Shown in pieces: positions 16,879 to 49,997 of a stretch of DNA of 64,000 nucleotides. Under the pieces are notes generated by a model. It was given only the letters and a program-made list of their open reading frames with translations. It made no database searches and was not told where the DNA came from. Made by a program: the position numbers and the translations under genes. How positions within the stretch are numbered: position 1 is the stretch's first letter; every line of letters starts with the position of its first letter. This DNA comes from an uncultured Chloroflexia bacterium (GTDB lineage Bacteria > Chloroflexota > Chloroflexia > Thermomicrobiales > UBA6265): the NCBI GenBank assembly GCA_963849635.1, contig CAWKIA010000025.1:196194-260193 (forward strand), given 5' to 3'.

Positions 16879-16945
16879 CGAGACGTGAGACGTGAGACGC
16901 GAGACGTGAGTACTTCGTCGTTGCTCCCGTCTCACGTCTCACGTC

Positions 16946-16950
<5 letters not shown>
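16879..16950. repeat. Hairpin-forming tandem heptamer repeat in the coxS-coxL spacer
   Basis: CGAGACGTGAGACGTGAGACGCGAGACGTGAG, a 17-nt loop, then CCCGTCTCACGTCTCACGTCTCACG. The arms are reverse complements, giving a stem of about 22 bp. Confidence 0.7.
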
Positions 16951-17437
<487 letters not shown>

Positions 17438-17679
17438 GCTTCCTGCCTCTCCTTCTGGTGCGCACCAGCGCGCGGGGCGTCAACCGATACCGAATGGCCG
17501 TAGGAACAACTGCATGATCTTACCGCAACAGCAGAGGGTGTAAAGGAAGCGCGGTCGAAGAACGTTACTCAGTTATTGACTAATTACATTCTGACTCGGA
17601 GAGTTGAAGGGGAGGATGCAGCCGTGGATTGGCCGATGAAGTCTGTGGAGGTATCCGGCGACGGGGTGAGTTCGCCAAG

Positions 17680-17722
17680 CCCCCTTCCCCCCGTTCCTCC
17701 ATAGCGCAGCAGGGGAAGGGGG
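17680..17722. other. Stem-loop CCCCCTTCCCC-N21-GGGGAAGGGGG in the cox upstream region
   Basis: Perfect 11-bp inverted repeat. Confidence 0.5.
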
Positions 17723-17766
17723 AATCCTGCCGGGCGAGTATCGGACTTCGTCATTCCCCACCCCGG

Positions 17767-17912
17767 CGTCATCCTGAGCGTGCGAAGGATCTTGGCGCGT
17801 CAGCGCCTTCGTGCTCGTTGGGGAAGACGGGCATCACGTATTCCGAGTGGCGTCGGGGTCGGCGGCAAAGGCCGCAGAGCGGCCAGGATCCTTCGCTCCG
17901 CTCAGGATGACG
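17767..17912. mobile_element. MITE-like element, copy A (about 146 bp, 25-bp terminal inverted repeats CGTCATCCTGAGCGtgCGAAGGATC)
   Basis: The left arm at 17767-17791 and the right arm at 17887-17912 are near-perfect reverse complements. The ends are shared with copy B at 46942-47089. Confidence 0.6.
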
Positions 17913-17985
17913 ATGGTGGCGGGGCGCCTTCCCAGCGTTGGGCAGTCGATGGCCTAGTGGGGCTGCCGTGGCATGGTGCGCTGCG

Positions 17986-18060
17986 ACCTGCGAGGCGGGA
18001 ACCTCCGGGAGCGGGGCGACCGGGCGCGCTACAACCTGCGAGGAGGGCCCTCCGGGAGCG
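17986..18060. repeat. 27-bp direct repeat, two copies 48 bp apart: ACCTGCGAGG(c/a)GGG(aa/cc)CTCCGGGAGCG
   Basis: Copies at 17986-18013 and 18034-18060, in the roughly 800-bp non-coding region upstream of the cox operon. Confidence 0.6.
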
Positions 18061-18242
18061 AACTGGCGGGGACTGGATGATGGCTGCTGTCCGAGCCGGA
18101 CGGTTTGATGCGCTGCCCGGGCCCGTGCCCTAGCCGGGTGTGCCGCTTGCCTGAGTGCGGGATCAGACTTCCTCCCCGCCGGATTCTTCTGAGTGTGGTT
18201 TGGGACGTATTGATCGTGTGACGAGTCCATCGAAGTGGAGCA

Positions 18243-36115: not shown

Positions 36116-36180
36116 TTCAAGTTCCAAGAAGTGAGGCGCAAGTCACTTGGACCTTGAGACTTGGAACTTGAGACTTGGAA
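36116..36180. repeat. Hairpin-forming tandem repeat in the ilvB-ilvN spacer (GAGACTTGGAACTT twice, plus inverted AGTTCCAAG)
   Basis: TCAAGTTCCAAG ... CTTGGACCTTGAGACTTGGAACTTGAGACTTGGAACTTGA. Confidence 0.6.
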
Positions 36181-36205
36181 CTTGATTCTCGTCTAGGAGT
36201 TTGAG

Positions 36206-46384: not shown

Positions 46385-46870
46385 CTAGCTTTCGATTCGC
46401 TTGATCACGACCTTTTGCTGCCCGGCTGGCGTGGAGAAGTAGACCTCTTGCCCGGGCCGCTTGCCGAGCATTGCCTGCCCCATCGGCGATTCATTGGAGA
46501 TGTAACCCAGGGCAGGCTTGGCCTCGATGGCGCCGACGATCCGGTAGGTCTCCTCTTCTCCGTCGAAGTCGACGACGACTGTGGTCCCGACTCGGACGTA
46601 TCCGCTTGAAACAGACGACGCCTCATCAACGAGGACTGCGTTACGGAGCATTCCCTCAAGGTCGGCGATCCGCTTCTCGTTCATCGCCTGATCGTGGCGG
46701 GCGGCATCGTAGGCGGAGTTCTCGCGCAGGTCGCCGTGCGACCGTGCTTCCGCCACCTGGGCGATGATCTCAGGGCGGCGCACCTCGCGCAGCTCTTCGA
46801 GTTCGGCTTTCAGCCGCTCCAATCCGTCTTTGGTCACAGGTACTTGCCGGGTGTCCACTGGAACCTCCAA
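46385..46870 (-). CDS. greA: Transcription elongation factor GreA
   Basis: VPVTKDGLERLKAELEELREV...HGDLRENSAYDAARHDQAMNEKRIADLE. Confidence 0.9.
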   Translation of the reverse strand: MEVPVDTRQVPVTKDGLERLKAELEELREVRRPEIIAQVAEARSHGDLRENSAYDAARHDQAMNEKRIADLEGMLRNAVLVDEASSVSSGYVRVGTTVVVDFDGEEETYRIVGAIEAKPALGYISNESPMGQAMLGKRPGQEVYFSTPAGQQKVVIKRIES

Positions 46871-46880
46871 AACTTGCGGA

Positions 46881-46914
46881 ATTCGGCGTTCGGCGTTCGG
46901 CGTTCGGCGTTCGA
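46881..46914. repeat. Tandem heptamer repeat (TTCGGCG, four copies) just upstream of greA
   Basis: TTCGGCGTTCGGCGTTCGGCGTTCGGCGTTCGAG. Confidence 0.8.
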
Positions 46915-46941
46915 GACTATTGCACCGGCGAGCTGCGTCCT

Positions 46942-47089
46942 TGTCATCCCGAGCTTGTCGAGGGATCTAGAGAGAGGCGGCGTTCCGATGTGCCGCCGTG
47001 TGCACGAGCGCGATCGCGTTTTCTCTGAGGCCGGGGCTTCGTCAGGGCATCGTTCCCTTCGAGATCCCTCGACAAGCTCGGGATGACAG
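46942..47089. mobile_element. MITE-like element, copy B (about 148 bp, perfect 27-bp terminal inverted repeat TGTCATCCCGAGCTTGTCGAGGGATCT)
   Basis: The left arm at 46942-46968 is the exact reverse complement of 47062-47088. Same GTCATCCYGAGC...GGATC ends as copy A. Confidence 0.6.
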
Positions 47090-47188
47090 GTGGCAGGCTG
47101 GCTCGGGATGATCGGCTGACCGCTGACGGCTGAACGCTGGCGGCGGCTGTTGGCCAAGAGCGGACGCTTGACAGCGGAAAGCTGACGG

Positions 47189-49889: not shown

Positions 49890-49994
49890 CGAGACGTGAG
49901 CCGTGAGCCGTGAGAACGGACGAAAGTCCCCTCGGTTTCAGTGGCTCGCGACTCTCTTCTCGTCACTCACGTCTCACGTCTCAATTCTCACGAC
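49890..49994. repeat. Hairpin-forming heptamer repeats in the groES-groEL spacer (GAGACGTGAGCCGTGAGCCGTGAG ... CTCACGTCTCACGTCTCA)
   Basis: Arms at 49890-49919 and 49959-49994 are imperfect reverse complements built from the same CGTGAG/GTGAGAC units seen in the coxS-coxL spacer. Confidence 0.65.
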
Positions 49995-49997
49995 TAA

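Follow-up and report, generated by a model that had tools for sequence, protein, structure and literature searches.

The two inverted-repeat elements studied here, A and B, are located in a stretch of 64,000 nucleotides from an uncultured Chloroflexia bacterium (this whole stretch is referred to as the window). With a probability of ca. 0.7, each of them is a convergent dimer of a REP-type hairpin carrying a CGTC or TGTC tag, that is, a REPIN-like, non-autonomous unit of ca. 145 nt.

Elements A and B in the window

Sequence inspection and repeat finding both recovered the elements with inverted arms reported in the preliminary description, A at 17767 to 17912 (146 bp) and B at 46942 to 47089 (148 bp), and the gene context given there was also correct. 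In the direction of the genes, which share one strand, a 119-aa ORF ends 331 nt before element A and coxS starts 330 nt after it (17437), and B is downstream of ridA (stop codon 100 nt away) and upstream of greA (GTG start at 46858, 84 nt away), so that co-directional genes flank both. For B, the repeat finder delimited two arms of 30 nt each (46942 to 46971 and 47059 to 47088) that were 97% complementary. The repeat of A was scored as two blocks (17756 to 17780 with 17899 to 17923, 80%, and 17782 to 17805 with 17873 to 17896, 79%) because a 1-nt deletion interrupts the arms. An inverted repeat does bound A, as had been claimed, but it extends ca. 11 nt further outward (CCCCACCCCGG and ATGGTGGCGGG) than the termini proposed for it.

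The exact 12-mer GTCATCCYGAGC was found in the window only at the four arm positions, for a chance expectation of ca. 0.015 exact matches per 64 kb (calculated for both strands and equal base use), and positions 47101 to 47112 hold a half-copy of it with one mismatch. Searching the window with a covariance model of the arm gave four matches of 35.7 to 40.6 bits (E values of 4e-8 to 8e-7), the runner-up reaching 13.7 bits. These four strong copies make up two convergent pairs, with a 93-nt spacer in each (Table 1). A degenerate third arm that we suspected within A (ca. 17838 to 17861) received no support from the covariance model.

The interiors had been described as dissimilar and yet able to pair internally, and both points held. 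Similarity between the spacers of A and B was non-significant (z values of 1.5 and 0.7), their length being exactly 93 nt in both cases, and each whole element, being an imperfect palindrome, folded into a single long hairpin (−91.7 and −89.2 kcal/mol as RNA, with z values of −8.3 and −7.3). DNA folding of A and B (z values of −9.0 and −6.6) also gave a single long hairpin from either strand.

Table 1. Features of elements A and B and of their flanks, with positions numbered from the first nucleotide of the window
Feature	Position	Strand	Length or sequence	Description
Truncated 5' half-copy	17749..17757	+	CGTCATTCC	18 nt upstream of A left arm; read from the sequence
A outward C-rich inverted-repeat extension	17756..17766		CCCCACCCCGG	Partner at 17913-17923
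A left arm	17767..17792	+	CGTC-ATCCT-GA-GC(G-T-)GC-GA-AGGAT-CT	1-nt deletion in the loop; covariance model, 35.7 bits, E 7.8e-7
A spacer	17793..17885		93 nt	Partly self-complementary, with small internal hairpins (folding)
A right arm	17886..17912	-	CGTCATCCTGAGCGGAGCGAAGGATCC	Canonical, with GCGGAGC mini-hairpin loop; covariance model, 40.6 bits, E 4.4e-8
A outward G-rich inverted-repeat extension	17913..17923		ATGGTGGCGGG	Partner at 17756-17766
Heptamer array	46882..46913		TTCGGCG x4.6	Flanks B; half of an inverted heptamer-array palindrome
B left arm	46942..46968	+	TGTC-ATCCC-GA-GC TTG TC-GA-GGGAT-CT; TGTCATCCCGAGCTTGTCGAGGGATCT	'TTGT' loop variant; covariance model, 40.3 bits, E 5e-8
B spacer	46969..47061		93 nt	Unrelated to A spacer
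B right arm	47062..47088	-	TGTCATCCCGAGCTTGTCGAGGGATCT	Identical to B left arm; covariance model, 40.3 bits
Motif half-copy	47101..47112	-	ATCATCCCGAGC	Minus-strand sequence; 13 nt beyond B right arm
Heptamer array	47113..47144		GCTGACC / CGGCTGAACGCTGA	Other flank of B

Several other features were observed close to the elements. Just upstream of A, a perfect 11-nt inverted repeat (CCCCCTTCCCC ... GGGGAAGGGGG) encloses a 21-nt loop (17680 to 17722), and upstream of the cox operon, at 17975 to 18060, there are two direct repeats of 47 to 48 nt (GCGCTrCrACCTGCGAGGnGGG..CCTCCGGGAGCG), each containing a small hairpin of the GGAGG/CCTCC type. Long spurious ORFs cross the dimers at 46694 to 47157 (both strands) and at 17629 to 18230, with peptides such as ...VLVIPSLSRDL..., ...KLGMTRTQ..., and ...LGMT....

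The arm is a conserved hairpin with tandem G·A mismatches

Every arm consists of a single copy of a self-folding motif (25 to 27 nt), YGTC-ATCCY-GA-GC(GNA)GC-GA-RGGAT-C, for which 96 distinct arms gave the consensus TGTCATCCTGAGCGnAGCGAAGGATCT. Its structure, ....(((((..((.....))..))))).., can be counted as 8 stem positions with a 5-nt loop or as 9 with a 3-nt loop. In the basic unit, the YGTC tag is unpaired, the stem starts with A-T and then T-A and contains two conserved G·A mismatches of the sheared type, and an inner stem of 2 bp leads to a GNA (or YTGT) loop. The base preceding GTCAT was T in 80% and C in 15% of 513 arms; the arms of A carry CGTC and those of B carry TGTC.

The motif is under hairpin constraint. 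Among the 96 arms, stem pair 7-25 was CG in 78 and UA in 18, pair 9-23 was UA in 58, CG in 36, and UG in 2, and neither was unpaired in any arm. The observed covariation score was reached by none of 500 shuffles, and G·U intermediates were nearly absent from the stem. In the set from viral contigs, where the 3' half was unforced, Y=T always occurred with CGAA (78 copies) and Y=C always with CGAG (25 copies). Stem positions 6 and 7 were G·A mismatched in 103 of the 113 unforced copies, and the fully Watson-Crick alternative, CTCA, appeared only twice in this set. Because that alternative is nearly absent from the unforced set, we consider the two G·A mismatches to be conserved features of the motif.

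The tip was GCGNAGC in 49 of the 72 arms of 25 nt and GCGNNAGC in 10 of the 31 arms of 26 nt. Both have been described as mini-hairpins whose extraordinary stability is a property of the DNA form, the RNA form being much less stable, and to which SSB binds poorly (PMC13037366). These mini-hairpins, d(GCGNAGC) and d(GCGNNAGC), studied by Hirao and co-workers, are known at single-stranded DNA (ssDNA) priming signals and in the hairpin promoters of phage N4 (PMC13037366). The tips of most arms have exactly these sequences; however, whereas the described mini-hairpins are isolated structural motifs, that of the arm caps a longer, tagged stem with tandem G·A mismatches and belongs to a dispersed repeat.

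Arrangement of the arms and unit of copying

What had been described as terminal inverted repeats are in fact autonomous hairpin units. Besides convergent pairs, arms occur singly, in divergent orientation, as pairs of mixed variants, and in alternating tandem arrays. At the viral loci, which were unselected for spacing, neighboring arms were convergent in 28 cases, divergent in 11, and direct in 9, and the convergent pairs measured 54 to 128 nt (median, 74.5). BIME-like tandem arrays of alternating hairpin variants were seen in a viral contig (L095, 8519 to 8969), with a period of ca. 87 nt, and in Taibaiella chishuiensis (L200, 2752 to 4165), with at least five dimers in a row. Many acidobacterial and verrucomicrobial arms have extra nested hairpins in the loop, and inserts or nested copies were found inside the hairpin loops of L136, L137, and L161 and of long-arm variants.

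Chloroflexota loci share the architecture seen in the window, namely, CCCC(A)CCCT, an arm of 25 nt, 76 to 92 nt of spacer, a second arm, and AGGGG..., and the CCCC(A)CCCT...AGGGG(T)GGG flanks of A recur among them. Their spacers are recognizably conserved between copies, both within and across assemblies, and therefore the whole dimer of ca. 130 to 146 nt is the copied unit there. Over its full length, A aligned with elements of Chloroflexota and Dehalococcoidia (L125, L172, and L202) at 65 to 68% identity. The preliminary description had called the elements MITE-like (miniature inverted-repeat transposable elements). This remains fair in the sense of a miniature non-autonomous repeat, given the copying of the whole ca. 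140-nt unit in Chloroflexota, but not in that of a classical MITE.

Half-copies stand beside both A (17749 to 17757) and B (47101 to 47112), as truncated 5' halves 13 to 25 nt beyond the full arms. In two other Chloroflexota loci (L219, 7659 to 7720, and L220, 5900 to 5990), the 5' half GTCATCCTGAGC plus ca. 8 nt forms three to five tandem repeats, followed by a complete dimer. These stutters suggest that copying repeatedly aborted, or slipped, at the tag end.

Distribution across bacteria, plasmids, and viral contigs

The view of A and B as members of a single repeat family, alike at the termini and divergent in the core, was borne out by the many copies found elsewhere. Viral contigs were scanned for the pattern GTCATCCYGAGC-N8-14-GGATC and a genome collection for the pair arrangement at the spacing of the window, and each scan returned at least 120 loci. 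Among the viral matches listed, 113 of 143 fell at the two shortest lengths allowed, which is beyond chance. Those listed from the genome scan came from about 12 phyla or more. They included Acidobacteriota, Verrucomicrobiota (mainly Chthoniobacterales), Planctomycetota, Gemmatimonadota, Eremiobacterota, Chloroflexota (Chloroflexia, Dehalococcoidia, Ktedonobacteraceae, and Thermomicrobiales), Bacteroidota (including Hymenobacter, Taibaiella, Sphingobacterium, and Rhodothermales), Alpha- and Gammaproteobacteria as well as Bdellovibrionales, and, among Firmicutes and Actinobacteria, Bifidobacterium, Ruminococcus, Eubacteriales, and Syntrophomonadaceae.

Granulicella rosea DSM 18704, Hymenobacter daecheongensis DSM 21074, and Taibaiella chishuiensis CGMCC 1.12700 are among the cultured carriers. 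The motif was also present on a few cyanobacterial and Phocaeicola plasmids, and a search of cultured-phage records gave no match. Three viral contigs (L031, L049, and L093) hold a 25-mer identical to the left arm of B, and in other Chloroflexota assemblies there are several copies, located on separate contigs. When the window was compared by blastn with all fetched loci, only distant matches (ca. 70% identity) were obtained. A literature search with the arm sequence string retrieved unrelated primers only, and the motif goes unmentioned in the 2025 RepRanger survey.

An empty site at the ridA-greA junction

The relatives of its GreA place the source organism in Chloroflexota as Thermomicrobiales-like. 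In five contigs from relatives (GreA 84 to 94% identical), the order aminotransferase-ridA-greA-methyltransferase is kept. The spacer between ridA and greA is 330 bp long in the window and 25 to 26 bp in L241 to L244, 70 bp in L246, and 167 bp in L245. The motif was absent from the five ridA-greA spacers and from all 29 kb fetched, so orthologous empty sites, which the preliminary description had asked for, do exist. Compared with these relatives, the site of B is a composite change of 300 bp, and a clean filled/empty junction was not obtained. For the locus of A, no empty site was recovered, the best CoxS relatives from metagenomes being at most 80% identical and having no homologue of the 119-aa ORF or of the intergenic DNA.

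In L245, the closest relative, there are inverted heptamer arrays (810 to 835 and 935 to 970) but no dimer, and therefore B is nested at the center of an older palindrome. Inverted pairs of tandem heptamer arrays build palindromes at three intergenic sites of the window (16881 to 16910 with 16924 to 16950, 49890 to 49914 with 49945 to 49995, and 46882 to 46913 with 47113 to 47144), one example being (GAGACGT)x4 ... (ACGTCTC)x4 between coxS and coxL. At 36145 to 36185, a tandem array of ca. six heptamers (ACTTGGA/ACTTGAG, also scored with a period of 14) is located directly upstream of a ribosome-binding-site-like AGGAG. We take the heptamer tandem repeats of the inverted pairs to be reminiscent of the STRR repeats of cyanobacteria.

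Genomic location, boundaries, and alternative explanations

Based on a crude ORF caller, 26% of the units were inside predicted ORFs, compared with 86% coding sequence, and among the gene contexts of the units, convergent ones were enriched and divergent ones were depleted. These figures bear on the possibility that A and B belong to a structured RNA family, either sRNAs, as had been proposed as an alternative in the preliminary description, or cis-acting terminator or stabilizer hairpins selected for their function as RNA. The fold of both elements is very stable on both strands (z values of −7 to −9), both lie between co-directional genes, and the wider sample favors co-directional and convergent contexts. 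Moreover, effects of REPs on mRNA stability are known from other bacteria (discussed in PMC3733652). Nevertheless, this explanation is improbable, since single arms located between co-directional genes showed no strand preference with respect to transcription (20 sense versus 25 antisense, by the same ORF caller), the interiors are not conserved between A and B, hardly any G·U intermediates occur in the stem, and loops of this type are much more stable as DNA than as RNA (PMC13037366). Neither element has a U-tract terminator, and B has no promoter-like site on the gene strand; the sole promoter-like match near A is on the minus strand at 17544 to 17517, ca. 220 nt outside the element. An Rfam scan of the window gave no match at the gathering score, and the only hit was a plant microRNA-precursor hairpin below threshold (34 bits versus a threshold of 69). 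No association with any gene family was seen either.

Alternatively, the hairpins could be kept as landing pads for site-specific recombinases, IS110-type elements, or phages. There are precedents: filamentous prophages integrate at the Neisseria dRS3 repeats (CGTC-1), and REPs are specific insertion targets of several IS elements. The nested copies and inserts in the hairpin loops of L136, L137, and L161 and the presence of the motif in viral contigs would agree with such a role. However, nothing is integrated at A or B, and no integrase or IS was seen beside the copies examined. This explanation would account for the use of copies but not for their origin or spread, and we find it improbable as an account of A and B. 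Two other classes of site were rejected by reading the sequence: integron attC sites, which require GTTRRRY/RYYYAAC cores, and IncP-type nick sites, for which ATCCTG is present but its T varies with the pairing partner.

A classical MITE would be an internally deleted DDE-type IS whose terminal inverted repeats of 25 to 30 bp are bound by the transposase of a full-length copy, and the parent IS would end in TGTCATCC...GGATGACA. The size of 146 to 148 bp, the near-perfect inverted termini of B, with a TG start and a CA end, the presence/absence polymorphism, and the fact that whole units are copied in Chloroflexota all speak for it. The boundaries do not: target-site duplications, which the preliminary description had suggested looking for, were lacking (as direct repeats of at least 2 nt) in 137 of 142 convergent pairs and at both A and B. 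The first flanking base was complementary, extending the palindrome, in 82% of the pairs, and a minority had an outward inverted repeat of 8 to 10 nt. Nor is it expected for a MITE that the arms fold on themselves, with internal covariation, and occur also singly, divergently, in mixed-variant pairs, and in arrays. Only two adjacent convergent arm pairs were gene sized, with a D-Ala-D-Ala carboxypeptidase and phage-like ORFs as contents, and a non-exhaustive search of 2 Mb of loci found no transposase inside such pairs. Finally, clustering of 1,924 ORFs near the repeats revealed no recurrent linked gene family; the ORF clusters common to more than five loci were confined to viral contigs and are assumed to be phage genes. 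Taken together, a classical MITE is very unlikely.

That A and B are locus-specific operators of the cox and greA promoters, alike by chance, can practically be dismissed, since, apart from their position upstream of genes, the identical motif stands at hundreds of unrelated loci in about 12 phyla (among the matches listed) and is missing upstream of the orthologous greA in the five relatives, and ca. 0.015 exact matches per window are expected by chance.

Relationship to known repeat families

The preliminary description did not recognize the termini as a named family. They fit a described class, the CGTC/TGTC-tagged REPs presented by Di Nocera, De Gregorio, and Rocco in 2013 (PMC3733652). 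According to these authors, the superfamily includes dRS3 of Neisseria and RPE-4 and RPE-6 of Rickettsia, and its members have a CGTC or TGTC tag, a stem of 8 to 9 bp starting with A-T and then T-A, a loop of 4 to 5 nt, and a short unpaired 3' tail, mostly CCA (PMC3733652). They occur mostly as inverted dimers with spacers of 20 to 100 bp that may fold as one large stem-loop, direct dimers being rare; they form both homodimers and heterodimers, sit between co-directional or convergent genes, number tens to thousands of copies in a host genome, and, unlike GTAG REPs, have no associated transposase (PMC3733652). Intragenic CGTC-1 copies encode the peptide VIPAKAGI and CGTC-1 dimers encode VIPAKAGI...IPAFAGMT, and five phyla were listed for the CGTC repeats in 2013 (PMC3733652).

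Our motif agrees with this description in the YGTC tag, the tag-outward dimers, the occurrence of homo- and heterodimers and of clusters, the intergenic location, and the lack of a linked transposase. The tag-outward order of A and B matches the CGTC-1 dimer peptides given there. Inverted neighbors also prevailed over direct ones at the viral loci (39 versus 9), and the 93-nt spacers of the window are within the range of 20 to 100 bp. Its stem begins with the same two pairs and, at 8 to 9 positions with 5 nt in the loop (C-GNA-G or CTTGT), would fit the described geometry, except that two of the stem positions are conserved G·A mismatches, on which that description is silent. Besides these mismatches, the motif differs in having the GCGNAGC DNA mini-hairpin as its commonest tip and in its tail, C(T) (consensus ...GGATCT) instead of CCA. 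Its hosts also go beyond the phyla listed in 2013, with Chloroflexota, Acidobacteriota, Verrucomicrobiota, Gemmatimonadota, Planctomycetota, Firmicutes, Actinobacteria, and Eremiobacterota, as well as viral contigs.

In its tail and its tandem G·A mismatches, the motif departs from the four CGTC families described in 2013, of which CGTC-2 appears to be the nearest. The Sulfurovum peptide of CGTC-2, RHSELVSGS, would back-translate to roughly CGTCATTCTGAGCTTGTCTCAGGATC, nearly the arm of B, with ambiguity in the choice of codons. Accordingly, we file the motif provisionally as a further family of the CGTC/TGTC-tagged REP superfamily.

GTAG REPs (Pseudomonas, Escherichia coli, and Stenotrophomonas) and the REPINs built from them share with our motif the short tagged hairpins, the inverted doublet as the replicative unit, the lack of target duplication, the intergenic location, the BIME-like alternating arrays, and the variable presence among relatives. 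GTAG REPs are mobilized by RAYT tyrosine (HUH/Y1) transposases. Here, in contrast, the tag is YGTC, and no repeat-flanked RAYT gene was found in the window or the loci. Eleven RAYT/TIRYT proteins used as tblastn queries gave no match in the 64-kb window, and the Y1-like genes at three fetched loci had no flanking copies, the nearest copy of the motif being more than 1 kb away. Besides, the sequence of the motif is near constant across phyla, whereas GTAG REPs are usually confined to a species or genus.

Bacterial MITEs such as Correia/NEMIS and those derived from IS630 or IS5 resemble A and B in their size of ca. 150 bp, inverted termini, noncoding interior, and intergenic location near genes. 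They have, however, target-site duplications and the termini of a parent IS, and the pairs described here have neither, their "termini" being independent hairpins.

Proposed mechanism of spread

Four properties suggest that the hairpin is selected as DNA and not as RNA. One DNA strand is favored by the mini-hairpin tip and by the G·A pairs in tandem, wobble intermediates are nearly absent from the stem, there is no bias with regard to the transcribed strand, and palindromes and hairpin loops serve as nesting sites of copies. The structure and the lack of target duplications suggest that the dimers spread as ssDNA, with the top-strand hairpin extruding at replication forks. The enzyme would be supplied in trans and could be of the HUH/Y1 type, as in the REP/RAYT system, or another. 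Insertion appears to prefer existing palindromes, as for B, at the center of the older heptamer-array palindrome.

Once inserted, a long hairpin may act secondarily on transcripts. Element B provides a 27-bp perfect duplex within the ridA-greA junction. In splitting a junction of formerly 25 nt, it would place there a stem of −89 kcal/mol, a possible obstacle to exonucleases or target of RNase III. Such effects of B on expression are plausible as secondary, predicted consequences, and a dedicated regulatory role is not needed to explain the A and B dimers.

A broader interpretation is that the tandem-G·A/GNA hairpin constitutes a single pan-bacterial selfish ssDNA lineage, carried between phyla by phages and plasmids, with its sequence held constant by one enzyme other than a flanking RAYT. 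We consider this doubtful. If it applied, a candidate mobilizer would be a host- or phage-encoded ssDNA-processing protein recognizing the SSB-resistant mini-hairpin, and its identification would account for the movement of the "orphan" CGTC REP superfamily.

Significance

Elements A and B should be annotated as dispersed REP-type repeats and not as regulators of cox or greA, small RNAs, or transposons. The short ORFs predicted over them are spurious, and translations of such repeats likely pollute protein databases as "hypothetical proteins." As the ridA-greA case illustrates, insertions of this kind can disrupt a tight operon junction (from 25 bp to 330 bp). Such repeats are nothing unusual in bacterial genomes, although the constancy of the hairpin across phyla and the lack of a known mobilizer are mildly notable. 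The motif is a natural and very abundant genomic setting for the GCGNAGC DNA mini-hairpin, and a hairpin that keeps its non-Watson-Crick features intact from Chloroflexota to Bifidobacterium and viral contigs offers a handle on what moves CGTC-type REPs.
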